Assembly (NCBI GenBank): GCA_008632985.1
Contig: QPGO01000024.1
Coordinates: forward strand, 1 to 64,000
Origin: Psammoneis japonica
Taxonomy: Eukaryota
Direction of reading: 5' to 3'
Length of the DNA: 64,000 bases
Shown: positions 7,160 through 46,853 of the stretch, one piece after another
Layout: the number at the start of each line of letters is the position of its first letter
How positions within the stretch are numbered: the stretch's first letter is position 1
The notes under the pieces: model-generated
Database searches by the model: none
The model's input: the letters and a program-made list of their open reading frames with translations, nothing else
Told to the model about the DNA's origin: nothing
Made by a program: the position numbers and the translations under genes

Positions 7160-7229
7160 GCAGTCGAGATGACGATAGTGAAAAGAATAAAAAATAGCAT
7201 CATGATGATTAGAATCGGAGAACAACGAG

Positions 7230-10505: not shown

Positions 10506-10571
10506 CTATACCCCAAAACTTGTCATACTTCAATCTCTATATAACAAACTCTAAGGGTGTAAAACTCAAGT

Positions 10572-13500: not shown

Positions 13501-14151
13501 ACCGTCTTTCTGGGTGATCGTCACAGCAAGAGACGGGAACTTCGGCGGAATCGAATCCTCTGTCGTACTCTTTCCTGGCTTAGTGGATCTTCCGTCGAGA
13601 GCAGGGTTAACTGAATCAATGTCAATGAATGTCTCTATGCCCTTCTTCCCGTCAGTTTCCACAGCCAGGTCTGGATTTGCAAACATGGACGCTACAGCCA
13701 ACCTTCCTTCAGCAGTAGCAAGAATGTCGCCTGTAACCAAGAGCAGATCTGCCCCGCCATTCAGACGAATTGCAGCACAGAACAATTCGACAGATGACAA
13801 AGAGAGAGACGAGGCGAATCTCACTAACGAAGCATCTCGACTTTTGCATCTTGCAACGACGTCACGGATGTCGTCATCTTTAGCAACCAGCATCCCAGAA
13901 GGCATAAAGGTTTCAGATACTGTCAATGTATATTCTCGGAAGACGATGAAAACTATAAGCCCACCAGTAGATTGAAGATCATCAGTTTGCTCCACTAACA
14001 CCGCGGCGGATGAATCACTGTCGCGCGATTCAAGAACAAACTTTTCGGGGAAAAGAAACATTATCATTTCCGCATCAGACTGGGGTTGCTTTGATTCCAG
14101 GGTGATCACATTATGTCGAGCCTCAGCAGATTGATTAACCCCCATAGCCAT
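10572..14151 (-). CDS. Multi-exon protein: DUF1769-like domain + PH-like domain + DUF547 domain; introns ~13247-13350 and ~12553-12630
   Basis: VPVETDLFVGKLLIVLRP...FSKRKRR|QGKFK..VYAGGEV...DTYSFAFYSMYLD..W is DUF1769-like. SGYCAR...WVQLTDRHLSFYQ...MSLKSIVNV is PH-like. EKLAFFLNLYHVMIMHA...SLTELEHNIIR...DYRINFALNCGSRSNP is DUF547. Start codon uncertain. Confidence 0.8.
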
Positions 14152-14748
14152 GATAATCAGCAAGAGCTATCGCGTCGACTGTTCAGTAGTAGCCCTACCA
14201 CACACGCGACAAAGAGAGTAGAAGAGTACTTCACTACCGTAAAATAAAAGAGAGGTGAAGTTACGGTAGTCTAGAGTCTAGGTACCTTACTCCTGTTGGG
14301 CTACAATCTCGTATCGCGGCGTGGCGAAACTCTGCAAAACCTCAGAACGAACGCACTGGATGGCTTGTGCGTAGGGCCCTACTACGTACCGGTATGTACC
14401 GTAAATCGCGCAGGTTCCGGTATGTACTTCTACATGCACGACTTACGTCATTTCTTTCCACGTCCCGCCCCGTGCCCGCCTCGCCCACGATTGGATACTA
14501 CTCGGGATATTTTTTTCATTTCCGTGAATGACTGAAGATAAATTATTAAAAGAAATGAAAATAAAACAAGCGCATTTCCGCTACCCAACCACCACCAAAT
14601 CAAAATCGCCTCGACGTGCACGGAGCGGAGCGGAGCGCCACGTTGAACTTTCCTTCCAACTTCCAGGTAGCAGTCATCACAACATACCGGTACATACATT
14701 ACAGGCCACAACACACATTGCGTTTGTGTTGCGAGTCACTTCAATCAC

Positions 14749-16437
14749 ATGTGTAAAACCACAGCAGCAGAGACATCTAGCAACAGAAAGGACTTGTCTG
14801 CAAGAATAGGAGCCGCCACGACGAGTCCTAGAATGCGAAGGGGAAAACGCGACAAAGAAGGCACGTTTGTGGCTCCTACAAAGAAACCAGGGCGGAGTCG
14901 CATTAAGAAGAAATCAAAGTCGCTTCAAAAGCACGGGTCTGATGGCAAATCAGGTGGTATAGAAGCGTTGATACCCTCCTTGATCGGTGTTGTAATTCTT
15001 GTGGTGTCAGCCATGGCAAAACTGGGTTTTCGTGGACGAGCTTCTGTCGCCGGTGTTGACCTTGGAACTACTAACAGCGTTATTTGTGTTCAACAGCCGT
15101 CGAAAACTGTTGGCGAGATCGTGTGTATGCCCGACCCCAATAGCGGTTCGCCTATCATTCCATCGGTTATTTCCTTCCTGGAGCACCCCGATAGAACCGG
15201 CAGAAATGACAAAAAAGTACCGCTTCTGGATCCGCATCCTTCTCAAGTTGTCGTTGGTCGTGAAGCCAAACATCGCATCGACACACATCCACACCATACA
15301 TTATACAACGCCAAGCGTGTTCTTGGTAGATCTTTCACGGATGATGCGGTCCGGGACTTACGCAATGAAGTCGAGTTCGAAATCATACGTGAAATCGAGG
15401 AAAGTGACTTGGACTCTACTTCTGACAGAGGCGGCGTGATGTTTCGGGTACCGCATCATCACAACTCTGAGTTGTCCTCCATACTACTGAAGCCTCAGCA
15501 AGTGGGGTCTTACATCGTACATCACCTTATTGAAATCACGAAACTCAATTTAGGTCATGAGAACGTCAAGGCTGCGGTGATTGCAGTTCCAGCTAAATTC
15601 AATTCTTATCAGCGTCAAATGACCGTGGAAGCATTTAAGATAGCCGGCGTGACGGTTTCGCGAATACTGGAGGAACCAACCGCAGCCGCCTTAGCGTATG
15701 GCCTCGACAAAAAAGAAAACGTGGACTACATACTAGTCTATGATTTTGGGGGTGGGACGCTCGATGTGAGCATACTCCATGTTAGCAACGACGGCTTCGT
15801 TGATGTCATGGGCAGCGATGGCGACGATCGACTTGGTGGTGCCGATTTTGATGCTGCCGTCGCACACTTTTTGCTTAGGAATCAGGGCGGCCAAGATGTG
15901 GTGGATCGAGTGGCGAAGATCCTGGGACAGTTTGAGATCCAGTTTCAAGTTTCCGATTCCGGTGATGTGGAAGAGGCGTTGGATGAGGCTTGCCCAGTGT
16001 TAAGAAACGTGTCGCTTTGTACAGTTTCCTCGTTTCATACTCTTGGGGAGAAAATGAAAATAGAACTTTCTTCATATCCAAATGAAAACGTGGAAGTCCG
16101 CGCTGAATGCTTAAGCCCTCCAATTCAGAGCTCCATGCCTGCCACATTGACGGACTTTTGTGAATCGCTACGATCCTATCCATTATCACTGACAAGCTTG
16201 CAGTACAATGACCTTGCACGACCCTTATTTGACAGGTCCAAGCTCCCTATCGAGAGGCTGCTGGACGATTTGGGCTTGCGTAAAGAAGAAATCGATGAAG
16301 TGGTGATGGTAGGTGGTACAACACGAATGCCACAGATACGAGAGTTGGTGAAAGAGGTGTTGGTTATGGAAACACTCAATACCCACATCGATCCCGATTT
16401 GACAGTCGCGTACGGTGCAGCATCAGTAATTGATTAA
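14749..16437 (+). CDS. Atypical Hsp70 (HSPA13/STCH-like): N-terminal TM segment plus ATPase domain, no substrate-binding domain
   Basis: [71 protein letters not shown] and [11 protein letters not shown]; the stop follows four residues later. Confidence 0.92.
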
Positions 16438-16599
16438 AGAAACGCTCGTTTCGCCTAGGTTAGGTTTGCAACGAAAATCAGAATTGCATTCTTAGTTATC
16501 TGCATACAGGATGCTTTGCTTGATTCTCTCTTCATTCTCTTTTATTTAGATTGGCTAATCAAGTCTGTGGAACTACCGAAAGCTGGGGTAGACACCTGT

Positions 16600-19500
16600 T
16601 TCCCTCGTGAGATCGATGCTGTGGGTTTGGTTTTAAGAATCAAATGAGAGCATTTTTAACGCCAGTCGCACCAACAGCTTGACGATCGGTTTTGCGGACC
16701 ACCATGACTCTTTTTGCCAACAGGAAAGATGCAAAAAGTTGGCTCTGAACTTGCATCGAGCAATGCAAGAAACTCTCCACTGGCACTGGTGATGCAGGCA
16801 CTGACGATGCAAAAGCGGCCCAAGATGCCGCTTCGACTGGCGCTCTAGCTCCAAGCAGCTGGGATTCGACAAAAGGGCAGCCACGACTTTCTGGCAGTGT
16901 CAGACTGCAACCAGCCCTCTCTCTCTAGAAGGATGACTCTGTCTTGAGCCATTTCATGTGTAATGCAAAGAAAGGTTGCAAAGAAAAGGGCACTGGCGGA
17001 ACATTGCACAGTTGTGGCTGTGGCTCCACAATTGGCAAGTGACATGTTCACCTCAACCACTGCACTCCCTTTGCTTTGCCCGCATTGCAAAACCACACAA
17101 TGGTTTTAAAACCATGCCTGACATTGAAAACATGTTGGCATCAACTCTTTGAGGTGCATGTTCATTGCCATGCTCTGTCATGGCTGATCACCATCATCTC
17201 TCATCTCCGCACCACTTTGCCAGAGGTGACATGATTGCAGCAAGAAAAGGCAGAGACAAACCTCTGAAGAAAGATTTCATGTCCACCAAACAAAGCAAGT
17301 GTCACTCTTTTTCTGCATCATCCATCATCTGCATGAAGCATCTGCTGACTTGTCATGTGGTGGCCACCAGTGTGGCTGCAAAATGTCATGCTGTGAGAAT
17401 GGAAAGACCCACGAGTGGAAACTGTGCAGGGCTGCCCAAACTCTGTCATTGCATTGTGGCCATGTGTGAGTCCAAAATGAGGATGGGCAAATGCATTGAG
17501 CCAGTTGTTGCATTTAAGCACACAGCAGAGAAAACATTTCCACAACACAGAGAGAAAAAATCAAGCAACAAAGCTTTTGATTGTCTCAGTTCTGCACAGA
17601 ACACATGAAGCAATTGTTTTTGTGGCAGATCTCAAAGTTTGCCAAGTGCAACAAACATGAACAAAAGAGATGGGCTTGCCAATCTGCTGGCCCCTCAATG
17701 GGATGCTCTCCTCCTTTCTTGATTGTCAGTGCAGTGCATCATGCACATCTCTGCAATCAAGCAGGGAGCTGACAAATGCTGTTGAGACATGCACAAAACA
17801 TGCCCTCTGACTGAAAAAACAAAATTCTGTTCACAATGGTGGGGGCTTGGTGCCACACAAACAGGCAGCTGCTTTTTGCAAGGTTCACAAGAATGTGACA
17901 TAAAACCATTGCTGTGCTTGGTGCAAGAGACAAGCGTTCATGCTTCCCTTCCTTGTGGTGTGCTGCAAGTGCTTTTAAAATGCACAACTTTGTCTGTTCT
18001 CAGTGCAAAGCTGTCAAAGCGGCAAGTCAATGTTGCAAAAGGAGGGAGTCCCATTGGTCAGTCACAACAATGGCTGTGGGTTGAAAGTGGTGTTGCTGCA
18101 AACTGTGAATTTGTGTGACAACATGTGCCTGCCAATGCTGAGTGACAAATCATGCAAACCAAATGATTTGCTCCAAAGAGTGAGATGAAACTGAAAGGTG
18201 AGAGATTGCTGACAGTGAAACCTCACTTGTCAAGAGTTGCAAAATGAGCTGCATCATTGGCCACTGCATCTTTTCTTCAACACGTCCAGGTTCTTCACAT
18301 TTCCCACAACCTGGATGCTGTTCCAACAAAAGCATCAAGAAAATTGTGCACACTGCACAAAGCAGCGGAAATTTCACTTGTGCAATGCAGAAGCAGTGCA
18401 CACAGCTGCAAGAAGCCCCCCAGTTGTTGGAGTTTTGCAGCTTGCTAGCCAGCATGCATTTGGTGTCACCAATCCTGAGCTTGCTGTGTGGCTTGCAAAC
18501 ACATTTCTCCAATGCCACATCTGCTTTTGCAATGTCAACCAGGTGCAGAAGGCAAAAGGTCAAAGGGAGCACAAGACCCACAACTCAACCCAAGTTGAGA
18601 ACACAAATCCACCATGTTGTCCACAATCATCAGCACATCTTACACTGCAATGTCAAATGTCCATCCTGCAGAAACTGCCTCTCACCACAATGCACCAACA
18701 CACTCCTTTGCACAAGTCATCAATTGGTTGGCCTCAGGAGGCACATCAAGAAGCATGATGGGAGGATGACACTTGGAAACCATGCCATCCAAATCCACAT
18801 TGACTGTTGTTCTGTCAACTCCTGTGGCCTGCATCACAAGATGACTCTGCCAACAAATGACCACCATTGCTGTTGAGCAAAGCACAACCCCATTTCACAT
18901 GCCCAACCTTGCAACATTTCCATGGTTTGATCTGCTTTTTATCATTCTGCACAAAGCTTGCACTCTCAGGGTTTTTGTTGAAACCACAAGTGTCCAACAC
19001 ATGCAGTGCTGTTGCTGCTCCTTCAATCTTGTGACAAAGGCCTTTGCACAGTTTCCCACAATTGTGTTGAATGCCCTTGCCTTCTGTGTCTTGTAGAATG
19101 TGATCTGTTCACACATGGTGATCACATTGCTTGCCCCAGATTGTCTTGTCCTTCTTCAATGTGGCATCTCCCAATGGACACTCTGGCTCTTTTGGCATGC
19201 TCTCCTGCCTCAGAGATGCCAGCACCTGCATCTCTAGCCCAAACATTTTTCCAACACACTGGTTGATCTTCTTCATGGTTTCTGTGCAACCATCTGCCTG
19301 TGAACCCAACTCAGCAATGGCATCATGCACCCACTCCTTTGAATCGTTTGTGCTTCTGCATCTGGCTTTGTCCTTGAGATTGTTTCTTTGCCCTTGTCCA
19401 CCAACCCAAGTCATGAATGCAAATCTGTCACAAAGTCCACAGTCATCAGTGCATCATGCACTGCAACATTGTCTGTCTGTCCTGCAAAAACTGCCTCTCA

Positions 19501-22500
19501 CCAAAATGTTCCAACAGCACCTCTTGAGCCACAGCAACCTCAATCTTTTCTTTCATCAGCTGCACATTGCATGCAGATGAGTCAAGAGTGAGTTTTTGCT
19601 TGTGGTTTGTTCCCTTTTCTCATTGCCACACCCACATGGCTTCTTTGGCACTGCAGTGGTGATGACTTGTGTGGCTGCCACTGGTGGCTCCACCGCACTG
19701 TCTGGTGCTTCAGCATTGGTCACTGCCCCCAATTCCTCCTCTTTTCAGAGCAGCTCAGCTGTGTAGACTCCTGTCCACCTTTTCTCCAGTTCCTTTTTTT
19801 TTGGAGAAGGGCTGGCTCTGGCCATCTTAGAGGACTCCCGTCCCCATTTGGTTGGCACAACTCTCAAAGCAGCAAGGCAGTGTCTGATCTGATCTTGCCT
19901 CTGATGACACTGCCATGGCAGCTGGATTGTTTAAAGTTGGCAAACAGTCTGGCAAATGCCACTCCAGCACTTCCCACATGCATCCTTGTTGCTCAAAATG
20001 GTGCTCAGCTCTCCCTGCTGTGGCCCATCTGAGTGCTGTGCTGCTCAAGCAAAGCTTGTCATTGGCAAGGCAATTCTGTTGGCTTGGGTGCACACCTCAC
20101 CTTCCTCTGCTGTGGCAGCCACTTGGTCTGACTCTGTCATTGTGGCAGCCTCTGGTCCAAGAGTTGCGGCCACCAGTGCCACCCATGTTGTCTTGCCAAA
20201 GTTGTGGAGTGCAACACGCCCATGCTGAATGCTGGCTCTGGGACATGCTGTGCCTCCATCATCTGCTTCTCCTTGTTGTCTGCCAGCCATGTCATTCATG
20301 CATGACTCATGTCATTCTTTCAGTTCTCTAAAGCTGTCAGACTCTTTCAGTGATGCCTTTGTTGCGTGCACTTTGACAAGACCCAAGCCCTTTCTTGGCT
20401 GCCAGCAGTTCACAGCACCACCCTGGCTGCAGACATCAGCTGCCTTTTGGCTTTGTTTGCAGGCTCTGTCTTTGGCAGTCATGTGGTCCTTGCCCAGAGC
20501 ACTGTGAAGGTGACTTGCGAGTTCCATCCAACCTTTTGGAGGCCCAGGCAAGTGCAAAGATCTGGTGCACTCACCCTCAAATGAGGCCTGAGTGTGCCAG
20601 CTGTTCAGTGTGTGACTTCATCAAATCAGTGATGCAGAGCACTGCAGCCATGCCAGCATCACACATCACACCAATCAGATCCCATCTGCATTGCGCAAGT
20701 GAAAAAATGGATTGGTGCTCTCATGACCAATCTTTTGTTGGCGCTTCACACCCAGAAAAAAGCCATTGCTCTGCAGAAGTCAATGGCAATTTGGTGCTGA
20801 GCTCAGCCAAGACTTTTCTGTCTCCTCAACAGCAATCCCCAACCTCACATTCATGACTGCAGCATTGGTGCAACAAAGTGAATTGGAAGAAACAACTCCT
20901 GTTGTTGTCTCTGCTGAAAGAGGCCCGCGACAATGCTCCAAGTGCTTTCAGCGACAAAAATTGTGGAGTCAACCTTCACCACTTTCCAACAGGCTCAAGA
21001 AGTGCTGGGACTGTAAAACTTCATTGTTTGAGACCAATTTGTTGTTGGGCCAAGTGTGGGTGACTTTCTGAGACTGCCTCATAAAAAAAGCTGACACCAT
21101 CCACCATTTTACTCCAAAAAATGACTGCCTCAACCAAAAGCAAAGTTTGTTGAGGTGGAGTCTGGCTCACATGTGGTTGAGCACAGTGGCAACAAAGAGT
21201 CACTGCAAGGTGTGCTAAAAGAGGTGGGGCTGCCCCCCCCCCCAGCTGCAAAAAAGTGTGCATGGAAAAGATTCCATGTTTTGTGAGTTGCCTGGCATCT
21301 GTGCAGCACAAAGATCATCAATGGCAAGATGTTGAGCAGTGGGAACATGACAACACACACAAACAGCAGTCTTTCTCATCTCACTCTTTTCTTGCAGGGA
21401 GAAACAGGTGATGGCCTCATGCAAAAGGGGGGAAGACCAAAACTTGCTGAGGGTTGGGTTGAAAACAGGCAGCTGCCAAAAATTGTTTCAGAAAGTGTTT
21501 TGAAAGGTGCTCATTCTTGCCACGTCTGTGTGCTGTGCATTGACACCAGTTTTGTGCCAAATGGATGAAGTGTCACTTCTGAATGGAAGCTCCACAACCA
21601 GTCAATTGGCAACAACTGCATGTGTGCTTGCAGGCTCTGTCATTTGCAATCTTCTTTCGCTGGATCAAGATGAGTCTAAGTGCTGCAAGTGCAGGATTGT
21701 CAGTTTGGCCAACATTGCTGTCAAAGCTTTCAGAGCACATGGGGGGCTGGTTCTTCACCAGGTGCAAGAATTGCAGTCAGGATGATTGCCATGTGTTGCT
21801 GGAAGCAACAGCCAGAATTGTTTGGACTTAAAGAAGAACCTGTCATCTGCACACCAGCCAAGAAGCTGTTTGAGTTGAGTGAACAACCCAGGCCACTTGC
21901 ACACTTCATGATGGCAAAAAAAGCAGTGCTGCCATTGGCAATCTCAGCAAAGAAAGAATGACTCAATGGTGGGCAAAGCCTTTTGAAGTGGAGCCCAACT
22001 CATGTGCAGTTGAGCACAACAATGACAAAGAGGAGCCATTGCAAGGAAGACTTAAAGTGGTGCTCCCAGCTGCAAAAAAGGTGAGCAAAGAAAATTCCAT
22101 GCAGCTCCAAGCTGAGAAGGAGTCTTGTCCAGAGCTGCTTGGCATCTGCACAAAGAGTTTCCATTTGCACTGTGTGAGCAAAACAGCAAAGTGTGCAAGG
22201 CTGAACACACAATTGTCTGCTGTCCATGCACTCTTTGGTGAGGTCTGCAAGTGCACCCTTGCCCACCATCTTTTGTGCACCATTGTTGTTGATCATTTTG
22301 TTGAACCATGACCAACATGAGAAAGTGCCGCTTGTTCTTGTTTTGTGCTCTTTCCCTGTTGTGTGCAAAGGATGATGGCTGCAGAAGGGACAGCCAAAAT
22401 CACCAAAGGCAAGATTGAAGACAGCACAAAATTGTCTCTAGAGCATTGGAAGGTGCTCATTCTCACTGCAGGGTGCAAAAAAAGTTTCTGGGAGAGAAAC

Positions 22501-23890
22501 ACCATAAAGAAGGGAGAAGCCACTTTTCTGACAATTTTGCAGTTGCTTGGTCTGGTGAAGCAAGATGCTTTGCATTGCAACATGCCATTGACAGCACTGC
22601 CAAAGCAACCAGCAATGGGCACAATGTGTGTGCTGCAAATGTGCACCAACAGCCTCCACACACCCAAGAGCAGCATTTTAATGTGAAGGTGTGGTGACAG
22701 ATCTGTCATTTTTGTCACAAAAGTCTCTTGAACTTGCCCTTGGAATGCTCCAAAGAAGCAAAAACTGCTGGCTGTCCAGAGCAACTCATTGTCAAACTTG
22801 TCAAAAGCATGGCTTTGCTCCAGTCTGCAACTTTGCACATGAAGGGTGTGTGTGCAGTGCAAAACTCCATTTTTTGTCTTTTGGTGTGCAGGGCGGGGGC
22901 TTCATTGATGGTGGCACTGTGCCACAAAACACAAAAAGTTGCACATTGCAGAGAAAAAGTTGCAGCACTGTTGTCAAGCAACTGGCTGCATGGCATTTTT
23001 CATGCTTTGCAATTTTCCCTCTGAGAAAAGAACTTCAAGTTTGATGTGTCATGCCAGATGCACACAAAAAGCTGCAAAACGTTTCAGAAATCTGAGCTGG
23101 AAAGCACCCCCAACTGACTTTGTGCTTGTTTGCACTCCTCATTTTTGCCAATCACCAGCTGCAAGAAGGTGTTGCTCAAAACAGTCTGCTGGGCATGGCA
23201 GCACATCATGGGCAGGTGAGGCATTCTTCCACCAGCTCAACATGCTGGTGTTCAGCTCCCCGCAATGCATTGCTGGTGACTCTGCAGAAGTTGAAAAGTC
23301 TGGCATCCTTTGAGAATTTTTCTCAATGCTTCGAGCCATCTGCCCCAAGCACAGATGATGATGCACCATGGGCTGGACAACTGCCAAAAAAGTTCTTGTC
23401 ATTCTCCAGGGCACAACACAGAGAAGAACACCAAGCATGAGCTGCTCTGGGGGAGACCTTGGATTCCTGTTGCACATCAGATTGATGGAAAATCCAAGGG
23501 GCAAACCTCAGCAGCCAATGACTTCTCATCAAGGTTGAAGTTGCCACCCCAAAACCACAGCATGGCTTGAGCACATGCAGTGCATGGCAAAGGAGGGAGG
23601 CTGCAATCACGAGTTGCTTGCCAAGGAGGAAGATGCTGTCAAACACTGTTTCTTCCAGCACTTTTTGTTTTTGGTCTTGTGAGTTTGAGTGGCTTGTGCA
23701 TGTCAAGCCCAAAAACAGGACAGATGGACAAGTGGCAAATCGGGCTGTTTTTTTTTTGCTGTGTGCACAACATTTGGTGAAATCAACCTCACTTGCCAAA
23801 GTCAGCAGTTGTCTCTCAATGACATTTGACATCATTGATGACACTGCTGTGATGATCCTCATTGCCTCTCAATGAATTCAGCAGGGCTGT
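16600..23890. mobile_element. Patchwork of heavily mutated transposon remnants (TpA/CpG-depleted)
   Basis: Almost no TA or CG dinucleotides and no credible host ORF. Contains a gag-like fragment, a diverged internal duplication (~18570 vs ~19400) and a possible Copia RT fragment (MNLPLE...IVKLVKSM near 22730-22830). Confidence 0.7.
18880..19400 (-). mobile_element. Ty1/copia-like gag fragment with degenerate CCHC knuckle
   Basis: ETMKKINQCVGKMFGLEMQVL...KEPECP...KTIWGKQCDHHV / KARAFNTIVGNC..AFVTRL / PWKCCKVGHVKWGC resemble the gag of diatom Copia elements once C/H are read back to Y. Confidence 0.5.
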
Positions 23891-23891
23891 C

Positions 23892-24270
23892 TGCAGCGTG
23901 CATTGTCAAGCAGGAAGAAGCACACATGTTCACAACTGCACATTGTTGCACGCATCCATTGCACCACAATCATGGGTGCATGCAAAGGACAGACAAATCA
24001 CACAGATTTGATCAGATGTCAAAAACTGCAAATGCCATCAATCAATGATATTGACACAAAATTTGTCAGTGCTTGTTGCACTGCAATCAGATTTTCTGAA
24101 TGGCCTTTGGAGCAAACGGCACACTTTGGGCCATTGAGAGCTCCTTCAGAGAAATCCAAAATTGCAGCACAAAATCCAATCTCATGGTTTTCTGCTTTTT
24201 GTGATTTGCTCCTCCACTTTCATTTGCACTCATTCTTCAAGCATGGTGCATTGTGTGTGTGCACCACAGA
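23892..24270 (+). repeat. 5' LTR of the gypsy element
   Basis: Aligns by eye with 28582-28990 (shared ttgcaccacaatcatgg, gcaaaggacaga, caatcaatga, gagagctcctt, aaatccaatctca, ttcttcaagca). Confidence 0.85.
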
Positions 24271-27200
24271 AGGCAAAAACACAAAATTGAAGCTTTCACC
24301 TCATGCAACTGATGCCAAGTCTTCTGTCAAGTGAGGGACAATTGTTCTGGTGCCCCTGAAAATGATTTCCAAGCCAAAGTTGCTCAAGTGAACCCAGTGC
24401 CTCAAGATGGAGCAATGTTTTCATCCTGAAGACAAGAAGAGTTGCACCCACACAATCAATGTCAAGCACTGCAACCAGCAGGGAGTCTGCTCCAAGTGTG
24501 TGTCAAATTCTTGAAGACTTGCCGTTGATGCTTGGTTGGCCAGAACATGCAAAAGCAAGCAAACAAGTTCCATCTGATGCAATCAATGTTGAGTGCCACA
24601 ACAAGCAGGGAGTTTTCAAGTGAATCAAATTTTTGAAGACTTGCTGTCAACTTTTGGTTGGACAAAATGTCCAGAAGCAAGCCAACAAGTTCCATCTGAT
24701 GCACATGTTGTTGCAGGGAGATGCTCTCCAAGTTTTTGAGAACAAGGCTGCAAAAACACATTTGCTTCGAAGAGGCAAAGAAGCCTTTGAAAAATGCCTG
24801 TGTTGCCTTTCCAACCATGTTTCCCCCCAAAGAATGCACTTCAAAGTCAGAAACGGCATCTGTGACATGATCTCAAGAAGCCACTGGAGACTGTGAAGAT
24901 CTGCAAAGCTGCCACTTGGACTCAGGAAGGAATGAACAAATGCTCAAAGTTCCACCCTCTTTTTGTGCCAAAGCAAAATCTGGAGGATGAAGATGGTGCT
25001 GTCAGTCAAGCTCACAAGGCTTTAAAATCTTGGATCACACTTTTGACAAGTTGGTTGAGTTCTTGGAGTGTCTGGAAGTTGCTGAGGACACATTTGACTG
25101 GATCAGTGATGTCAAATCTGATCACAACAGCAAGGCTGGGTCAAAGTCAAAGATGGACCTAATTGCGGCTCCAAAAATGGTTGCCAATCTGGTGCCAAAC
25201 ATTCTGATTCTAAGATGTGGTTCAACCATTGCACATGGGCCACTCACAAATGTTGGGTTGATGGAAGACTGGCAAACTGATGCTGAGAGAACTTTGAACA
25301 AAACCCAAAACAGCAATGTTCAAATGGCAATTGCAGGTGGTCTTGCATTGTGGTGCTAAAAATGCCTTTCCAAAGGAAGAGTGGAATGTCATGATCACTC
25401 AGCCAGTCAACAAAATCCTCAAGACAAGTTTCTTGACATGTGACAAAAAGCACAAGGGCAAAAATTCTGACTGTGATGCACTTGGCAAAGAAAACTTCCA
25501 ATTCGAGTGCATGTGATGCACAGTTGTTCTGAAAAATGACCAGCTTCTGTTGAGGAGTCTTGCACATTGCTGGATGTCAGCAAGCCCAGAAAAAGGCCAA
25601 AGCAACTCACACAGGTCCAGCAGTCATTGCTCACATGAACCCCTCTTTGAGAAAAGAGAGGGGTGAGATCCTGCATGTTCTTCTTGATGGTGAAACATCA
25701 TCAACTGCAATTTTGTGCAAATTCACATGGAAATTGAGAACCAAAGAATCCGCCACCAAGATTTGGAAAACCAAGGGTGGACTCTTTGCAACTGACAGCA
25801 AATGCAAAATGCAGTTCTTGTCACCTGAATTTGACAAGCACAAGCACATTGACAAGATGGCACATGCTCATGGCAAGCCCTCTTCTTCATGTTGATGTGA
25901 TGTGATCATGGGACACAACCTGATGAGCAGTCTTGGAATCACACTCAGCTTCACAAATGTGATTGGAAGATGCCACTGCACCAATGAAGAATGTCGGTGC
26001 TTTCTTTGATGCTGATGTCTTCAAGCTGATTGCCAACCACATTGAAGAGTCTGGTGCTGTGAATGGCCTCAATGGCAGGACCAACAGCACCAGGATCCTT
26101 GATGCCAACTGTCATGTTGCCAACCTCAATGATGTGACTGTTGGCCACAGAGACACATCTCACCCCAGGAGAACAGAAGCAACTGAACTCTCTTTTTAAA
26201 AGATTTGAAAAGCTTTTTCACAGTTCCTCAGGTGTGTGGAAAGGAAAACCAGCAGATCTCATGTTCAAATTGGGCATGACTCCACACAATTTGGAGCCAT
26301 TTCCCACACCACAAGCCTTGGAGGCAACTGCTTGAAAGGAAGCAGACCAACTCTATGAGACAGGAGTCTCAAAGAAAAACAATGGACTGCTCTGAATGGG
26401 CAGCTCCAACCTTTGTTCAACCCAGGAAAAATGGTCAAGTTCAGTTCCCACCCAACTTCTAAAGAGCTGAGAGGGAGGCTGGTGTGCACTTCACACACCC
26501 TTTGCCCAATGTTTGGGATGCACTGCAGAAACTGGAAGGTTTCATGCATGTGACCTCATTTGATTTGACCACAAGATGCTGTCACATCAAGCTGACATGG
26601 GGTGCATGTCATTTGTGCATGATGGTGATGCAACGGGGCAAATGTGAATGTTGCGAACTCCTTGTGAGAATTTCCCCCATCATTTTTCAAGAACACATGG
26701 GCAAACTCATGGCAGGTTTAGAGTTTGTCAAAACTTGCTATGTTGATGTCATGCTGTGCCTGACAAAAGGTGACTTCAAAGATCAACTCCAGAAACTTGA
26801 GGAGACATTCACATGGCTCAAACAAACCAGTTTGAAGGTCAGTGCCAAGAAGTCCTTTTCAGCTGAGCATGATGCAGACTGTCCAGGCTTTCATGTCACC
26901 TAAAATGGTGTTGCGCCACCCCCCATGAAAGTGAGGGCAATTCAAGCAGCCCAACTGCAACTCCCAAAACTCACAAGGAGCTGCAATGTTTCATTTGTGT
27001 GGTCAATTGTTGTCAAGACATGTGGCCTCAACAATCTCATGCACTTGCTCTCCTCTTGCCAAACTCACCCAAACAAAGGTTGAGTGGCAATGGATGAGCA
27101 TGAAACAAAAAGCCTTCAACAATGTGAAGTGAGTTGTGTCAAAGGATGTGTCATCATCACACCCAAATTTTGACAAACTCTTTGAGCAGTGTGCCAGGAG

Positions 27201-28581
27201 AGAAAAAAATTCTGAATTGGGAGCAGTCACATCACAAAACAATCAACCTGTTGCTTTCCACAGCTGCAGGTTAAATGGGGTGCAGACATGACACAACACA
27301 ACAGAAAAAACTTCTGCCCATCTTAGAACACTTGAAGGGTTCCACAACTCACTGTTGCCAACAGACAAAAATGTTTGTGGATGACAAAAACCTCACTCAC
27401 AAAAATTTTGCTGTGAACCCAGTCATGCATTGTCATCTGACAATCAAAGAACACAGTCCTAAAATGACCCATCTCAAGGGCACAAGGACAATCTCATTGC
27501 AGATGCAACCAGCTGACTTGCTGTGAAAAACACAGAACCCATGGAAAACCTGAGCAGGGAAGAACCAGATGAGAAGTCACACCAAAATCCTGCAACATTG
27601 TCTTCCATCAATGAAGACACCCTCTTCAAATTGTTGGACAAAACACATCACATGAAGACTTTTCCTGGATGCAAGTGAGATTGAATGCTTGCATGTCACA
27701 AGGACAAAATCACTGGACCAAAGACATTGCAAAAGACAGCAACAGATTGGGGTCATGGTGCACCTTCTGCACCCTGGCACAAACAACGGAGCTGAAAAGA
27801 GGCAATCTCACAACACCTGTGGTGGTCCACCTCACATGAAGACACAAGGAAATGCACATAAAAATGTGAGACATGCAAGCAATTCAAGAAGAAAAAACAT
27901 GCAGACATTTGCCTCCCAAGTGCTCAGAATCAGTGCCACAGAAAAGACCATGTGTGGATCTTGCCAGACCATGCAAAATGCATTGTGAAAGGGCAGAAAG
28001 AATCTGGTGGTCCTCAAATGTTTGACAATGATTGATCCAGCAACAGAACAGTTTGAAACAGCAGAAATCCCAAACAAGGAATCCTTGGCCATTGTTGAAA
28101 GCAGGTGCCTTTGGCCATGGTTGATTGCTTGTGACCATGGAAGTGAGTTCATTGGACACCAATTCAGAGCTGTGGTTGAAGATGACTGTGGCATTGAATG
28201 CAAGCCCACATGCATCCATCAAGTGCTGGGAAACATGCTGTGTGCATGTGATTTACAAAACGCACCCCCAGATGTAGAGGATCCACTCTCTCATGTCATG
28301 CCACAGTGCAAGCTGCACCGTGCCAATTGGTCTTCAACGGAGACATGACATTTGTCATCCAACATGTTGCTGACTGGAAATTTGTCCAGAGACAAAAACA
28401 GGAGATGACAAATGAAAACAGCACTTGAGAAAATGCTCAATGCACTCAATGCCTGCAGGGCAGGAGAAAAGACATTGCTCAAGAAAGACTCTCAAAAGTT
28501 GTGACAGCCCTGTGCTGGGCCTGTCTGTCAAATGGTGCCATTTAAGGACAAGTGGCTCTAACGTGCAATTGGGGAAGCAAA

Positions 28582-28990
28582 TTCAGCACACATTGTTGAG
28601 CAGGAAATGACACACACACATTCACAATTGTGTGTTGTTGGCACGTCAATTGCACCACAATCATGGATGCGTGCAAAGGACAGATCAATCAATCAGATTT
28701 GATCAGCCAGATGTTGAAAACCAGCTCTTGCAAATGAGGTCAATCAATGATGTTGACACACGAGGCATCAATGCTCACCACATTTGGGCAATCTGCCATC
28801 ACAACTGGATTCTCTGAACTGCCTTCAGCTGCAGAGACAGCACACAAATGCTTTGGGCCACTGAGAGCTCCTTTGGAGAAACCTGAAATTGCAGTGTGAA
28901 AAATCCAATCTCACAATTTTTCATTCTTGGCATTTGTTCTGCTTGCTTCATTTGCACCCATTTTTCTTCAAGCACAGTGCATGTCCATCC
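28582..28990 (+). repeat. 3' LTR of the gypsy element, preceded by a purine-rich tract
   Basis: Direct repeat of 23892-24270; ggggaagcaaa at 28571-28581 sits at the polypurine-tract position. Confidence 0.85.
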
Positions 28991-30132
28991 TGTGCCCAGT
29001 GCAATCTGTGGCACAGAGCTGTGAAGCAAGTGCTCTCACATGTGCACCCATGTGATCAACTCACTCTGCTGCTGCTGCTGCTGCTGCAAATTTTGCCACC
29101 TCGCCAGCCCACAAGGACACAACTCACAAAAAATGAGGTCAACACAAAGCACAAAAGCAAAAGAGACAGTCAAACTGATCCTCAGAACTCTGTCCAATGA
29201 AGTGGCACCTGAGTTTTGGGGTGCAGTGCCAAGCATCAAACTCTTGTCAACAGCCCCTCAATGTCGTTTGTGACATGGCCAAGCTTCACCTGATCTGGCT
29301 GAGCACTGCAATTGACGTGGATGCAAGTTCTCCATCTGACACGCTCTTCAGTGCTGCAAGAAGGGTTTGGCCCAGTCGTTTTCCAAAACATGGGTGATGC
29401 CAGTGACAAGCTCAGTGGCTTGTTGGCAACCCAGAATGTGGCAGTCCATGGAGTGCAGCCATTGACCAACTCAAGTCAAAAGACAGTGATCATGGAAACA
29501 TCTCAGCCCAAAGCTGGCTGGAAGGGAGTGTGGGTGGCTTCATTGGCACCAGAGTGATGAGTGACGTGACAGGAAGGGCAACAACCCTTGCAGCCCCCCC
29601 CCAGTGAGAAGGCAGTGCTGGTCTGTCCTCGTGCAAATGCCAGATTTGGTCAAGCTTGACAGCATCCATGCACATTTTGAGACTCAATGCCAACTTCCCA
29701 TGATGCTGGGATGTCCTTTGTGGACGTTGGACCGGGGCGCAGATGCGACTAAAATCACTCGCGCAAATTACAAATTGAAGCGCGTAGGAGAGCATGGAAA
29801 AGCTGAGACCTGATGATGCGGTCAGCGCCGCACTTTCAACTTGGGGTCATTGTGATTGTAACTCTCTGGAAAATGAATGAGCTCCATGGCTTGGTGGTTT
29901 TCTCAGCGTCGCTTGTACAGCAACTTAACTCTGAGCAGGGGCGCTTGCCATCAAACCACGTCGGAGTTCGTCGAGTGCGAGCTAGCAATCAAGTCGTCTG
30001 GAACGCATTTCGATCTGGTGGGAATTTGCCTCACACATCATTGATGAAACACCACAGGAGAGCGGCGCTAACTCTCCTTCGATACCCCCAGTTACCTTCA
30101 AGGTTATAGACAGTAGCGGAGTAGAACGTCGA

Positions 30133-31293: not shown

Positions 31294-32208
31294 CTATGAG
31301 GACATTTTCGCTCGGTGCTTCTCATACCACAAGGTTGAGTGCTCATTTATCCAGGAAAGCAAATCAGAATGAATTTGATCAATAAGAGGTGGTGGCTCAC
31401 ACAAAAGACCGTGCAGCGCATCATAACGCTTGAGGGTCTTATCGGTTGACGGGGAGCTATCCATAAGTTCTAGAGCGCCGTCATTGTCGACCACGACATC
31501 TTCATTGGCAATCATGCAGATTATCGGAACCTTCACATTGGCAAAGCGCGCGCTTGTCTGTTTTGTCAAATCCACGCATGTAGCTGCAGAGGCGACTCGC
31601 AATTTACTTCCCGACACCGTCAGATCGTCGTCGTCGCACTCTTTTCTCTTGCTGGCATCACGATACTGCTTCTCACTCGATGAAGCCGAGGATGGAATGA
31701 GGGGAACGCGTGGCACCACATATGAAAGGAATTTCAAAATATATCGAGCTGGCTCAGAAACACTGAGAGCAAGCATTGGTGCCAGCAGAACAACACCAGC
31801 CACAACTTCTTGCGGAAGGTTTTGTGATGCTGCAAGAGCCAAAGTCCCGCCCATGCTAGACCCAATCAGGAAAAGTGGTACACCGAGACCATACTGTTCT
31901 TGAGCATACTTTGCAATCTCTACCCCATCTTCAACGAGCGAATCAGCACTCGGTAGATAACCTCGCATACCAGGCGACCTACCGTGACCTGGCAAATCGA
32001 CAGCGAGGACAACGTATTTGGATGCGGCCAACAACTCGGCGGCATATCGAACAGTGGGATATTTCCCATGGGCTAAGAATCCATGATAGATGACAGCAAC
32101 TCCTTTGATATCCACGCCGCCGTCGTTCCACACGTGCACGACGCAATCGTGACCATGGAGAGAAAGCGTCTTTGGCAGAGAAGACGAACTGTCAATCTTA
32201 CTCTCCAT
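31294..32208 (-). CDS. Alpha/beta hydrolase, monoacylglycerol lipase/lysophospholipase family
   Basis: VIYHG, AVDLPGHGRSPG.RGY, LFLIGSSMGG (GxSxG nucleophile), VVLLAPML, EDVVVD and DKTLKRYDALHGLL. Confidence 0.92.
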   Translation of the reverse strand: MESKIDSSSSLPKTLSLHGHDCVVHVWNDGGVDIKGVAVIYHGFLAHGKYPTVRYAAELLAASKYVVLAVDLPGHGRSPGMRGYLPSADSLVEDGVEIAKYAQEQYGLGVPLFLIGSSMGGTLALAASQNLPQEVVAGVVLLAPMLALSVSEPARYILKFLSYVVPRVPLIPSSASSSEKQYRDASKRKECDDDDLTVSGSKLRVASAATCVDLTKQTSARFANVKVPIICMIANEDVVVDNDGALELMDSSPSTDKTLKRYDALHGLLCEPPPLIDQIHSDLLSWINEHSTLWYEKHRAKMSS

Positions 32209-32700
32209 CGTCCAGTAGAGGGAAATGCCGACTGGGAAGAAATCAATTGAACAGAACACGGGCAAGAAGCAAGGAGTGAAGTCTCACCGCTCACCGCACT
32301 TACAGTACCGCGAACCCCGCGAAAATAAAAAAGTTACATAGTGTCTCACCGCGTCTGCCCACCCCTTCGACGAAAAAAATAATGATCTTCTTCGTTTTAC
32401 GTACTACAGTAGAGTGGAAAGAAGTGGAAAGTATGGAACATGGAACACACTCTATACAACATATACATCTACTCTCTAGAGTAGCTAGTAGTAGTGGCTA
32501 CTATTCATAGGGAATTTCGCAGAGCCTATGCTACAGAGAGGAACATTGCAAACATCTATGCAGGCAGATTCTTAAGTCATGAAAGAGCGGATGTTGAATT
32601 TACAATAATGGTACTACTGTATCAGAGCCTTTTTGGAACTCCCACAGAATTCCAAAATCATGATAAGCTTACGCTGCATATATAGGCCTAAAGATTAACT

Positions 32701-33693: not shown

Positions 33694-34009
33694 GGTGGCT
33701 TGTGGCGGCCGGCGGAAGAATGGCACACGCACTGAACACGCGTGTGTTGGCTGGAGAAGAATTTCGCGCGGAACTCGCGCGTATTTATGTCCCTGGTTGT
33801 GGATGCTTGTTGCGAAGGATAGCGGCGCCGGCCCTCGGAGGAGTCGTCACAACGCTAAAATATGGTACAAGTACAGTACAGTATTCTCTACTCTCGTAAA
33901 AATGCAATGGCTTCGTTGGGGATAATTTTTAATGTTGTTATTCATTCTGTGATACCGTATATATGAAAACCAATCTTTCACTCTCAACGGCCGCAACTGA
34001 TGGACTGAC

Positions 34010-34545
34010 TTGTGACAGACAAGTAAATTTTATTCATAACGTATATGAATAGTTGTCTGTCACAATGGGCATTGTGACAGACAACAATTGTCTGTCACAG
34101 CAACTTGTGACAGACAAGTAAATTTTATTCATAATGTATATAAACACTTGTCTGTCACAACGTGCATTGTGACAGACAAGTAAATTTTATTCATAATGAA
34201 TATAAATACTTGTCTGTCACAGCAACTTGTGACAGACAAGTAAATTTTATTCATAATGGATATAAATACTTGTCTGTCACAGCAACTTGTGACAGACAAG
34301 TAAATTTTATTCACAATGTATATAAATACTTGTCTGTCACAACGTGCATTGTGACAGACAAGTAAATTTTATTCATAATGAATATAAATATTTGTCTTTC
34401 ACAGCAACTTGTGACAGACAAGTAAATTTTATTCATAATGGATATAAATAGTTGTCTGTCACAGCAACTTGTGACAGACAAGTAAATTTTATTCACAATA
34501 AATATAAATATTAGTCTGTCTCAACGGGCAGTTATGAGACCCAGA
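34010..34545. repeat. Palindromic minisatellite: about nine units of 60-62 bp with a 182-bp higher-order period
   Basis: tgtgacagacaa starts at 34011, 34073, 34106, 34168, 34228, 34288, 34350, 34410 and 34470. Each unit is TGTGACAGACAAGT - AT-rich core - ACTTGTCTGTCACA, an inverted pair. Confidence 0.97.
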
Positions 34546-34896
34546 CCATAAATGATGTTGAAGTTGGTCCGGCAAGCGAGAATCCGGGTTCCTTTTTACC
34601 TCCACCGCGTGACGAAAGCACACGAAACTTACAAAAAACCGTCGCAGCCGACGATGAGATTGAGGCGATAAGAAAGTTATCGAGACTATCATCGTTTCGT
34701 GGACTTTTCATACTGTTTCTTCAGCAGCTTGGCGCTCTTGGTGATACTTGAGACAAAACTTGAGAGACGAAGGCATTGAGAGGGAAGTGGAACGAAGCCA
34801 AGACACTGCGAACTGCAAGAGTGCATGCACCAACACACGCGACTTCCCGCTCCCCCCAGCAATTATTCCATACCAATCTCCTCCGCTCCTCCGCGC

Positions 34897-35910: not shown

Positions 35911-38900
35911 TCAGAAATCCTCGTCGAAATCCCAGCCTTCTTCATTATCTTGATTAGCATCATTAGCAGGAGAAGGATCATGGCTCGGCTCATTCACCGG
36001 CGCCTCTGCTTCGGGTTCGGCGTTGGAACTGGCATGGCTCTTTTTCAGGTTCTGACTCATGTCGCGATCTACAACAGGTGGTTCGACAGGTTCCGAAACG
36101 TGCATTGCTTGAACTTCCTTCGATAGCACATTTGATGAAGGAGGGATACTGGTCACCTCCGTCGATGACATATTCGCCTCCTTCGACTCTGTCGTAGAGG
36201 TGGTCGTGCTATGGACATTGGTCCCCCCAATATTTTCTGTAGAGGCAGATCTCATTGGAGCAGCTAGCGTTGAAGCTGGTCGTATGGCGGGGCCCGACTG
36301 GTTTATCTCCGCCACAAGAGTAGATGCTGAAGGCGTGGCTCTGGCTGGTTCTTGTCGATGATCGGATACTGGACAGGCTCCTTTTCGACTCACATGGTAC
36401 ATAAGATGTTGTGTTCCCTTCATTATCCGGCATGCGTCTCTTAGCGCCTGTTGAATGCGATGAATTGTCGTTTGGTCAACAAGCACTCTCCTCAAGGTGT
36501 CGTTTTCTGCTTTGAGGTTCGCAATAGGATAATCGAAATTAGGATCCAAAGAGTGGGAGACCGCCCAAGCCATCGCTGTTTCGTAGCCTTCATTGTTCGT
36601 CATCATCGCAGCCCGCCTGGCGCCGTTCTCACTGTAGCCTCGTCCAATGAGACGTTGGACAATACCGGCATCTGGAAGCACATGATTTGGGGGCTGACTT
36701 GAAGAGGCCTCCTCGAGCATCGCCGAAACCTCCGCCTCGCTGGTTTCCTTCAATTCGCTAGCAAGGGCCACCCCTGCTTCTTTATTTTCGATATGCAAAA
36801 GTAGAGAGACGCCAAACTCAAGGGCGAATCTGGCGTCATCACTCTCCATCCCCTCCCGAATGCCAGTCATATCGGCGTGAAAAGAGTCAGCAATACACCA
36901 AAATATCACCAAGCGACAAATCGTGTGCAGCAAAGGGTCAGCCGACTTGTTTTCTTCGCCCACGAAATGCATTTGTAACTCAGAGTAAAGTCCGCGCATA
37001 TCTGTCCCATAGTGCTCACGAATGTAATCCAATATCCGGTCACCTGGTCTCGAGTGGCCGAGTCCCTCCAGCGAACGCGAACCTTTTGACTGCGGTACAC
37101 CCCCGACGAGCGTCTTGGCTGTCTTTGAGAAAATGCGAGCTGCCTTGAAAACAAGAAATCCCGTTTTTACTGACGAAGCATGTCTCGGTTCAGCAGTTTC
37201 TAATTGCATCGACATTTTCTCTTCAGTTGGAGGGAGTGACTCTTGGCTTGCTTCTCGAATACGAGGCCAACGACCGCTCCGCATTTCCAACGTACTGAAA
37301 CTTTTGATTATTATCTCGAGCAATCCAGTGTGGTTCACCGATAGCTTCCCACGAAAACGTTGTAAACAGCAAGACAAAGCTCCTTTCTCGTATAACTATC
37401 GTCGAATTCATCCAACGCGACGACTTCTGCAACAGCTTTAAGTCGCACTCTCACGTCCTCTTCTCCTTCCCATGGTAACGAAGGGTCACAAACAAGGGAA
37501 AAGCACGCAGCTGCTGAGGCCCCGTACAGCTTGGCTCGCACAGCATGGTGTACAACTCGACTTCGCAAAAACACTTGCGACGACAAACTGTCCAATCCCA
37601 GGATACCCGCAAAATGATAAATTGCGCCACCTGGTAGAGATGGGAGGTTGACGCTCCTTGGCGCTTCTTGCGAGAGAAAAAGGCTCTTGAAATACTGGCA
37701 AATTCTGAAATTTGCTTCGGTCGCGAAAGAAGGATCTTTCCATGCAGCGCATCCTGAAAGTACTGTATGAGGATTCTCTGTAAGCACAAGCTCAACAACG
37801 TCGAGAGGTGCTTTCTCTCGGATATCACGAGCTTTCAATCCACAGTCTCTGCGCCCAGCAAATAAGACATTTGCCAAGAAACTGGCAGCATCGAGAAAGC
37901 GACGCATGTTGCAGAACTCTGTCCTGACATCTGGAAAGAGAGGTCCAAACAAATCCTGGCATTTTATTGCGGCCTCTGCGCGGTCCCCATCTATCGATTC
38001 ACTGTCATCTGCAGAGAAAAACGATTCTCGCAAGAACGCCAAAACGAGGTTTTGCATGTCTTGCTTCTGTATCCACTCGTATTTTTCAGCTCGAGCGACG
38101 TCGACAAGAAGTTCAACGTGCCCCTTATTCAGCAGCGGCCTCAACAGTTCCCTTTGAATCGCTTCGTTAAATACAAGCATATCCTGAAAACAGAGTCCAT
38201 TCAGATGTTGAAGGTCAACAAAGAAGTCTTCAAGCAGGGACATCTTTTCCAGTAAAGTTGAATCCGGCATTGTCTCAACTAGTCGAACAACCCCCTTACA
38301 CATTTCTGAAACCATCTTCATTCCGACAATCATCTTTCCTTTCCGACCGCCATCACTCGATTTCGTCTCCTTCCGGTATGATATCATTTCAAGCAATAGC
38401 GAGAACGCTTCATTTCGTATCCACGTTACCAGAATATCTAGCGATACCAAATCGTAGTGCAACAGGTCGACGCTTCTTGCAATGATTTCATTTGGGCATC
38501 TGATGCTTCTATCTCGTCTACATGCTTCGGTAAGCACTCATACATTTCCCACATCATATTGATAAGCGTTCTGCTGTCTGACTCTGACAGATCGGAATTG
38601 CGCAGCTTCGATGCAGAGCCAGACACAACTTTGACAACCAACCGAATCAAAACCATTTTATCTGAAACAATACGGTCTGTCTCGCATACAGTTGTTCGAC
38701 TCGCATTCGCAATCGTAATAGTCAAAGCAAGAGCATCTCGGGTTTCTGATGTATGGTTTGCGCTTCGAATAAGCTGTAGACAATAACTAGCAACTGCATC
38801 ATCCACCATCGCATTACTCGAACTCGAGCCATTCATTTTACCGCTAAGCATTTTGTGTTGGAAACCTGGGATCGCCACAAGCGGCTTGAGAAACGTCTTG

Positions 38901-41900: not shown

Positions 41901-42184
41901 TTCCCCCAGAATCGAAAAAGACGTCGAATTTTACCCGGATTTCGATCAACATCTTCAATTCTGTCTTCTTCTTCATTTCTTCTCCTCGAAAGAATTGCCT
42001 TTGCTTGCGCCATAAGCTGATCCCTCTCGCGAAATTCCTCTGCCAACCGTGCGTTTGGATAGAGCTCTGCATAGATGCGATAGATTGAGGCCAACTCCAC
42101 GCGATAGCTTTTTCTATCCGAATCATCCGCATCACTTTCAACCGTGATAGTATCTGATCTCGGTACTATAGCGTAATGTGACAT
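35911..42184 (-). CDS. NBAS: NBAS/Sec39/MIP2-like ER tethering subunit with a C-terminal UBA domain, ~2090 aa; frameshifts near 38460 and 37360
   Basis: IALGFAAKGDVAVLTLLFVRHRLELVPHRFEILNQIPASVSVASYCHLLP and VTRWYLERARCIQNYRGSLD match conserved NBAS/Sec39 blocks. The N-terminal part is beta-rich; the UBA-like segment is IVQRLIGRGYSENGARRAAMMTNNEGYETAMAWAVSH. Confidence 0.8.
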
Positions 42185-46685: not shown

Positions 46686-46853
46686 TTCATCGAATTGGCT
46701 GCACCTAATGCACAAAGTAGACTAATCGGGTATAGGTGGTTCGTAAACACTGATTAGGTGCAGTGAATATTGTTACTAGCAAAAGTTATTTGCATCGGCA
46801 TGCCATTGTCGCACCCGTCGTCATTTTTTCCCGCGGTGCACCGCGGTGTCCAG

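Follow-up and report, generated by a model that had tools for sequence, protein, structure and literature searches.

Directed A:T to G:C mutation in genomic DNA has almost no known natural examples. The sole report found, a preprint by Mettrop et al. on a chlorarachniophyte, Bigelowiella natans (bioRxiv 10.64898/2026.01.13.699255), identifies no proven enzyme. In its mutation-accumulation lines of B. natans, two integrated viral regions gained 231 mutations; 230 of them were A>G or T>C, every one of these at TpA. The TpA mutation rate was ~1000 times the base rate, in some lines only. The B. natans genome contains 124 TpA-poor, CpA+TpG-rich clusters, TpA-poor genes are enriched in reverse transcriptase (RT) and DDE domains, and an ADAT2-like adenosine deaminase was proposed as the agent. 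Here, we describe a 64-kb window (the whole stretch analysed, positions 1 to 64,000 of contig QPGO01000024.1, assembly GCA_008632985.1) that contains three islands nearly devoid of TpA. One island includes a Ty3/gypsy long terminal repeat (LTR) retrotransposon remnant at 23.9–29.0 kb, in which conserved tyrosine codons read Cys or His.

The window resembles the B. natans case in several respects. Changes are TpA>TpG or TpA>CpA only, they affect foreign or mobile DNA in a normal nuclear genome, and the long-term product is TpA-poor, CpA+TpG-rich clusters. Conversion of TpA to CpA/TpG, an A:T to G:C direction and confinement to mobile DNA were all found here, confinement being assessed in one 64-kb window. 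The host differs, a rhizarian there versus a diatom-like stramenopile here, as do the targets, giant-virus and virophage inserts versus transposons. Depletion is near saturation here, with a TpA observed/expected ratio (o/e) of ~0.05, versus 0.45 in the B. natans nucleocytoplasmic large DNA virus (NCLDV) region. Strong CpG decay coincides with TpA loss and a preference for a 3′ pyrimidine is visible, unlike in the preprint, whose text has no mention of diatoms, stramenopiles, CpG or flanking context; its supplements may hold flanking-context or CpG data. The B. natans rate was measured in mutation-accumulation lines, whereas the window preserves the end state.

Other known systems match in part. 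Fungal repeat-induced point mutation (RIP), too, is an irreversible, transition-only, dinucleotide-specific, two-strand mutation of mobile DNA that leaves sharp islands and many stops. However, RIP converts CpA/TpG to TpA and has an AT-rich product, while here TpA is destroyed, CpA/TpG is made and GC is 0.47–0.51. RIP was rejected for this locus: its defining C>T change with TpA gain was not found, TpA is depleted, and 0 of 91 mismatches at conserved codon columns fit CpA/TpG>TpA. Methylation-driven CpG decay shares the CpG>TpG/CpA change with the islands, where arginine columns polarise it, but cannot touch TpA or Tyr codons. ADAR hyper-editing and APOBEC mutation also leave deaminase-type, context-biased clusters of transitions in mobile elements, and ADAR favours an edited A that follows U (cited in the Discussion of bioRxiv 10.64898/2026.01.13.699255). 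These enzymes work in animals on a single strand, RNA or nascent cDNA, ahead of integration, whereas here both strands changed once the element had integrated; APOBEC produces C>T rather than A>G. Outside B. natans, the literature covered, which leaves out most subscription journals, yielded no account of mutation directed at TpA, be it in diatoms or elsewhere. The TpA-directed A:T to G:C signature is already known from B. natans (2026), and the diatom-like case is new as far as the literature was covered.

Island-restricted loss of TpA

The window is a mosaic of ordinary-composition stretches with three TpA-poor islands set in. Host DNA has a GC content of ~0.48, TpA o/e of 0.4–1.1 and CpG o/e of ~1.0 in 500-bp windows. 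Host DNA next to the islands has TpA o/e of 0.5–0.9, compared with 0.00–0.11 for TpA and ~1.7–2.0 for CpA/TpG inside them. Its observed/expected counts are 1447/2395 for TA, 2057/2024 for CG, 2537/2264 for CA and 2407/2141 for TG. In the islands overall, TpA is down ~95%, CpG is down 60–90% and CpA/TpG is approximately doubled. Most 500-bp windows of the islands have TpA o/e of 0.00–0.11, CpG o/e of 0.0–0.7 and CpA/TpG o/e of 1.5–2.0. TpA density changes within 300 bp or less at the island edges, which were set from TpA and CpG positions and lie beside host genes. Depletion spans coding and non-coding DNA, including the LTRs and the segment at 16.8–23.9 kb. TAA and TAG are nearly gone from the islands, which are therefore filled with long spurious open reading frames (ORFs).

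Island B (16660–29750; no strand is assigned to any island) is 13 kb of TpA- and CpG-depleted DNA between Hsp70-like and tRNA-intron-endonuclease-like genes, the flanking ORFs matching Pfam HSP70 and tRNA_int_endo. Observed/expected counts at 16800–29600 are 45/911 for TA, 63/692 for CG, 1538/871 for CA and 1439/724 for TG. Within it, 7 kb (16800–23890, no strand) are depleted DNA without a recognised protein domain. TpA o/e there is 0.00–0.11 throughout, and this part is as poor in TpA and CpG as the gypsy element. Neither its ORFs nor its six read-through frames gave a Pfam family, and the RT homologues described below do not match it. Island C (50450–63420) is also 13 kb, is TpA-depleted and partly CpG-depleted, and includes a gap of 376 N. 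Observed/expected counts are 25/229 for TA and 82/231 for CG at 50500–54500, and 22/500 for TA, 185/484 for CG, 832/495 for CA and 854/488 for TG at 55500–63400.

Island A (4190–5210, ~4.19–5.21 kb) is small. A single TpA lies between 4187 and 5212, and 13 TA were counted versus 87 expected at 4100–5500, which spans the island. TpA o/e is 0.03–0.29 and CpG o/e is 0.21–0.56 in 500-bp windows, and no Pfam family was found in island A ORFs. A ~178-bp tandem repeat is present at the island edge (5119–5654), with overlapping copies ~95% identical. Its units keep three matching TpA each (5212/5243/5255, 5387/5418/5430 and 5562/5593/5605), unlike the adjoining depleted kilobase.

Loss of TpA depends on sequence context. 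The 105 TpA that survive in the islands comprise 2 in RTAY, 46 in mixed and 57 in YTAR contexts, and differ both from the 1447 host TpA (452, 747 and 248, respectively; chi-square p=4e-22) and from TpA in intact relatives of the gypsy element (27%, 48% and 25%; chi-square p=8e-14). Counted per strand, island survivors are TAA 97, TAG 63, TAC 28 and TAT 22. Retention relative to host abundance per strand is 0.026 for TAT, 0.035 for TAC, 0.10 for TAG and 0.16 for TAA. T-A-Y, which is exactly the Tyr codon, is the best target.

TpA loss and CpG decay are two separable processes. At 50.5–51.5 kb, TpA o/e is ~0.1 while CpG o/e is 0.5–0.7. Conversely, several relatives elsewhere, among them L025, L027 and L043, are short of CpG (o/e of 0.12–0.29) with TpA o/e still at 0.62–0.88. 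CpG to TpG/CpA decay of the kind seen in silenced repeats is present in island B and accounts for part of the pattern only.

Direction and timing of change in the gypsy remnant

The element at 23.9–29.0 kb was identified from its architecture as a degenerate Ty3/gypsy LTR retrotransposon, with an LTR pair around RT, RNase H and integrase in that order. The 5′ LTR core (23894–24251, forward strand) aligns at 70% identity with the 3′ LTR core (28584–28982, forward strand), at a spacing of 4691 bp. The degenerate pol (25743–28440, forward strand) includes a protease-like part, RT, RNase H and integrase, and has 15 in-frame stops and at least four frame changes. Pfam was run on single island ORFs and on read-through frames with X at stops. 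Matches in pol, all below curated cut-offs, are RVT_1 (E=3.9e-6 in a single ORF or 1.4e-4 in read-through), RT_RNaseH_2 (7.1e-5) and Integrase_H2C2 (0.0096). Neither scan found anything in the islands besides gypsy pol. An exhaustive HMMER search with the RT ORF returned 465 proteins at E<=1e-3. The 1004-aa homologue P0122 covers RT, RNase H and integrase (25743–28440) by tblastn in seven pieces and three frames. A further tblastn match at 44.9–45.2 kb (reverse strand) was dropped as low-complexity sequence. Observed/expected counts at 25650–28300 are 12/197 for TA, 7/133 for CG, 324/194 for CA and 285/135 for TG.

The original prediction, made from the sequence alone, was that conserved tyrosines of transposon enzymes had been recoded to Cys or His. 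Every string that it quoted was located where stated: DLTTRCCHI (26562–26588), THPLP (26493–26507), FMHVT (26541–26555), CDHGSEF (28130–28150) and DDCGIE (28181–28198) in the gypsy element, and CVDG (50600–50611), HTDKT (58824–58838), LGHM (58938–58949) and VCDW (59849–59860) in island C. Conserved columns were defined as the 217 codon columns with at least 60% agreement among at least eight homologues in tblastn alignments (matches listed: 150 of 465), and the window agrees with the consensus at 126. At the ten Tyr columns among the 217, it has Cys (TGT/TGC) in seven, His (CAT/CAC) in two, Tyr in one and Phe in none. Tyr retention (1/10) is lower than retention at other conserved columns (125/207; Fisher p=0.002), and substituted columns read Cys or His in 9/9 Tyr cases versus 1/70 non-Tyr, non-Arg cases (p=5e-11). 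The effect is real and far beyond chance.

At the RT GYYH tyrosines, two Cys codons, TGC TGT (26577–26582, forward strand), stand where 80/105 and 77/107 homologues have Tyr. The sole conserved Tyr retained (TAT, 26739–26741, forward strand) is in the YxDD motif, here YVDV. Across the 39 P0122 tyrosines aligned to the window, the residues are C 11, H 9, F 7, Y 1 and other 11. Aligned residues of the window versus P0122 are 0.2% versus 4.8% Tyr, 4.5% versus 1.6% Cys and 4.9% versus 2.3% His; Tyr content of homologues is 2.8–5.4%. Tyr codons are hit most, and Cys (coding-strand A) exceeds His 7:2, because of the T-A-Y preference.

Arginine columns show the CpG half of the decay, CGN to CAN/TGN. 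Nine of 13 conserved Arg columns read CAA (five), CAG, CAC, TGG or TGC in the window, giving Gln (six), His, Trp and Cys. TA/CG to CA/TG changes to the consensus could produce 37 of the 91 conserved-column mismatches (20 by TA, 16 by CG and one by both). CpG to TpG/CpA decay therefore yields about as many protein changes as TpA loss, which amends the picture of tyrosine recoding. Controls on the same mismatches gave 21 for the mirror change AT/GC to GT/AC, a mean of 9.2 and a maximum of 17 in 500 rounds of shuffled consensus, and 0 for classic RIP. The mirror figure is not trivial, since exchanges of the Ile/Val type are frequent in any case.

The proposal that Tyr to Cys/His changes are TpA transitions, with direction fixed by protein conservation, is backed by the conserved columns, the dinucleotide counts and the LTR pair. 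As judged from 145 homologues and 78 intact relatives, the direction of change is A:T to G:C. Recoding of conserved tyrosines held in the gypsy columns; tyrosine as the target did not, as nearly all TpA are lost across whole islands. Two of the quoted cases fared less well. THPLP was read as derived from PYPLP, and the string is present, but its Tyr column is only a plurality (homologues Y 25, F 20, H 9). The Cys of CDHGSEF was said to replace Tyr, whereas the two homologues covering this column have Ile and Cys.

The two LTRs of one insertion are identical on landing. The LTR alignment has 109 mismatches in 527 columns. Adjacent double mismatches include 14 CA/TG swaps, two AC/GT swaps and 25 other classes with no more than two each. 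CA opposite TG marks an ancestral TA (or CG) struck on different strands in each LTR. In the LTR core, 28/28 mismatches within shared pyrimidine-purine (YR) steps are transitions, and 43/196 columns outside YR steps differ (~22%), 24 by transversion. CA and TG are nearly equal across island B (1538 and 1439). The 14 CA/TG swaps place the change on DNA, on both strands and after integration, and the LTR differences exclude that the main cause was editing of RNA ahead of reverse transcription. With ~95% of TpA lost and, elsewhere, ~0.13 substitutions per site in each lineage, mutation of a TpA base is roughly estimated to be at least 10 times faster than that of the average island base, a minimum value given saturation.

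Relatives elsewhere have normal TpA. In 78 metagenome loci encoding intact relatives (62–83% identical to homologue P0123), TpA o/e has a median of 0.80 and a minimum of 0.60, and CpG o/e has a median of 0.96. The locus scan patterns demanded an intact motif, so the 78 loci serve as a control and do not count mutated copies. Low TpA is therefore not native to the family. Five intact gypsy RT relatives on metagenome contigs (L025, L027, L043, L035 and L047) have CpG o/e of 0.12–0.34 with normal TpA o/e of 0.62–0.88, and their hosts have only methylation-type decay. Among 145 homologue representatives, 26 have at least two Cys/His at Tyr columns; 16 of the 26 are near Tyr-free (0–0.9%) with Cys at 3.7–8.7%. 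Near Tyr-free RT fragments include P0138, P0261, P0139, P0169, P0171, P0141, P0154, P0164 and others, and the eight looked up are ENA or JGI metagenome proteins. A matching footprint is thus present outside the window, in public metagenome assemblies.

Island C, host genes and repeats

RT-like strings are found at 50470–50611 (forward strand), QGCPLGP followed by CVDG in another frame, and the LINE label was given from these strings alone. ORFs with HTDKT, LGHM and VCDW (58440–60301, forward strand) were likewise labelled Plavaka-like from strings alone. No Pfam family was found in any frame at 50.3–63.4 kb (for 58.4–60.3 kb, no hit at E<=1 or E<=0.05), and homologue searches with the ORF at 58440–59234 returned no homologue. 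For the 58440–60301 region, a protein atlas gave a lead to Plavaka clusters (PF18759; 0.89, 155 shared features) that is below the tool's trust level.

Independent contigs of the public run X1 cover island C at >=99.4% identity, for example with 14 differences in 2286 nt. In the long pieces listed, the window and X1 contigs differ at 22/5409 nt in island C versus 2/3527 nt in host DNA. The difference sites listed are 40 of 261, from contigs of one sample. Island C has 27 of the listed sites, of which 16 swap one of CA, TG, CG and TA for another. In four, the run has TA where the window has CA or TG, and none shows the reverse; the data are unpolarised. The X1 differences are a hint of ongoing change. 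Summed X1 contig depth is 3,800–20,800 at 52672–54005 and 62677–63343 versus ~57–60 for single-copy parts, so these two segments belong to high-copy repeats. At 56.0–60.7 kb, depth is 57–101, near single-copy. The assembly gap of 376 N lies at ~55020–55510, with a 50-nt repeat on either side (54334–54383 and 55510–55558, 98% identical). Island C showed no repeats of >=60 nt, either direct or inverted.

Long ORFs in host DNA match Pfam families for Hsp70, DUF547, cap guanine-N2 methyltransferase, tRNA-intron endonuclease, serine hydrolase, UBA and EGF. For the hydrolase ORF (31297–32283, reverse strand), 429 relatives were returned at E<=1e-20. Among the matches listed (120 of 429), all organism-named ones are diatoms: Fragilaria, Seminavis, Nitzschia, Cylindrotheca, a Bacillariaceae metagenome-assembled genome (MAG) and a shortened "Syned…" entry. 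Named diatom relatives are 50–56% identical to the ORF, and the best other matches among those listed are 59–63% identical. The host therefore appears diatom-like, not fungal, as judged from this protein. The families named in the original prediction have a fungal flavour, which is at odds with this host.

Three normal-composition open frames, at 38438–42217 (reverse strand, 1259 aa), 43987–45345 (reverse strand, 452 aa) and 46767–49649 (forward strand, 330–370 aa), have no Pfam family at E<=0.001. A 0.5-kb block within host DNA (34008–34553) matches itself directly and in reverse complement, consistent with a tandem or palindromic repeat. It has CpG o/e of 0.26, CpA/TpG o/e of 1.87 and normal TpA o/e of 0.75, so that CpG but not TpA is lost. 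Few internal repeats emerged when the window was compared with itself, and copy-to-copy polarisation was possible for the LTR pair alone.

Mechanism, alternatives and significance

The islands are best explained, with a probability of roughly 0.7, by an island-restricted, post-insertion, two-strand process that converts TpA to CpA/TpG (A:T to G:C) on dead mobile DNA, with CpG decay alongside. Most likely, a polynucleotide adenosine deaminase would deaminate adenine to hypoxanthine in 5′-T-A-(Y), to be read as G at replication. It would probably be recruited to silenced mobile DNA, with silent chromatin, small RNA or repeat state as the guide. Change on the coding strand of a Tyr codon would give Cys, and change on the other strand would give His. 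For CpG, ordinary 5-methylcytosine deamination would be at work, which methylated transposons are expected to undergo; CpG methylation of diatom transposons is described in two reports (PMC2806351, PMC9998398). CGN Arg codons would become Gln, His, Cys, Trp or stop, with CGA giving TGA stops. TpA and CpG, both self-complementary pyrimidine-purine steps, would both end as CA/TG. As an outcome, elements would be permanently inactivated, catalytic tyrosines lost, and profile recognition lost over most of the islands. The purpose would be genome defence.

Several points weigh against this reading. The data show the composition, the direction, the two-strand action on DNA, the island limits and the context bias, whereas we infer the chemistry, targeting and purpose, and no result here bears on chemistry. 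No deaminase domain was found in the window ORFs scanned with Pfam. The element is old, and TpA loss could be a chronic bias ~ten-fold or more above background, not a burst. The excess of TAR among survivors may partly be newly made TpA, as TAA stops face Arg at 26901 and 27859. The mirror control reaches 21/91, and codon reachability is a less clean test of direction than the Tyr columns. Homology-based polarity comes from one element only, and islands A and C and the 16.8–23.9-kb segment contribute composition alone. The diatom assignment comes from a single protein with named relatives only 50–56% identical.

It is unlikely, yet compatible with every base change seen here, that the thymine of TpA is hit instead, with a modified T (5-hydroxymethyluracil or base-J-type, made by a TET/JBP-like enzyme) mispairing with G and giving T>C. 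TpA is self-complementary, T>C and A>G on opposite strands give identical data, and the T-A-Y bias reads equally as R-T-A for thymine. In some protists, modified thymine occurs preferentially at TpA. However, the window itself offers no support, and no TET/JBP domain was found in any window ORF scanned with Pfam. The B. natans authors also read their experimental case as adenine deamination. TpA loss may instead need no dedicated system and be a slow side effect of silent methylated chromatin, through poor repair of spontaneous adenine deamination or error-prone repair in old unconstrained islands. Long time was available, as the gypsy LTRs are ~22% diverged outside YR steps, and passive CpG decay, which fits the methylation of diatom transposons cited above, is present in the very same islands. 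This too seems improbable: relatives elsewhere with CpG decay keep TpA (L025 has CpG 0.12 with TpA 0.62), while 50.5–51.5 kb has nearly lost TpA and kept half of its CpG. Spontaneous adenine deamination is not known to have TpA or T-A-Y specificity. In B. natans, the signature arises at ~1000 times the base rate and in some lines only.

Two further explanations are far less probable. ADAR-like A-to-I editing of retrotransposon RNA, with U preferred before A and reverse transcription before integration, would suit the best-studied element here, a retrotransposon, and the ratio of seven coding-strand TGY to two other-strand CAY at conserved Tyr columns. The 7:2 bias is, however, expected from the T-A-Y preference, since the coding-strand A of a Tyr codon always precedes Y. 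The LTRs were identical at integration, yet carry 14 CA/TG swaps, and CA and TG are balanced across island B. Moreover, depletion is continuous through 7 kb of DNA with no recognised protein domain, occurs in islands A and C, and stops at host genes, not at element ends. RNA editing is thus very unlikely. A sequencing or assembly artefact, or a native low-TpA composition of the elements, is least credible of all, and nothing was found in its favour. X1 contigs reproduce island C (e.g., 2287 nt with 14 differences), and normal host genes lie on one contiguous sequence with the islands. TpA is normal in the 78 intact relatives, and in-frame stops with frame changes represent decay of a once-coding pol.

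Such islands conceal transposons from profile searches, and Pfam is blank over 20 of the ~27 kb affected. A dinucleotide-specific DNA adenine deaminase of natural origin, if true, would be of interest to base-editing technology. The case offers a comparative handle, namely deaminase-fold or base-modifying genes common to carriers and absent from non-carriers, along with a sharper target motif, T-A-Y. Diatoms include genetically manipulable species. A second independent lineage, in a far more complete state, indicates that the signature is not a one-strain curiosity. We suggest, tentatively and at somewhat below even odds, that this diatom-like lineage, or diatoms, may run a RIP-like defence of opposite polarity, with a chromatin- or repeat-guided T-A-Y adenine deaminase. 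Together with Bigelowiella, this would represent an old, widespread and so far overlooked defence of the SAR (stramenopile, alveolate and rhizarian) group, and the Tyr-free RTs of metagenomes may be its footprints.

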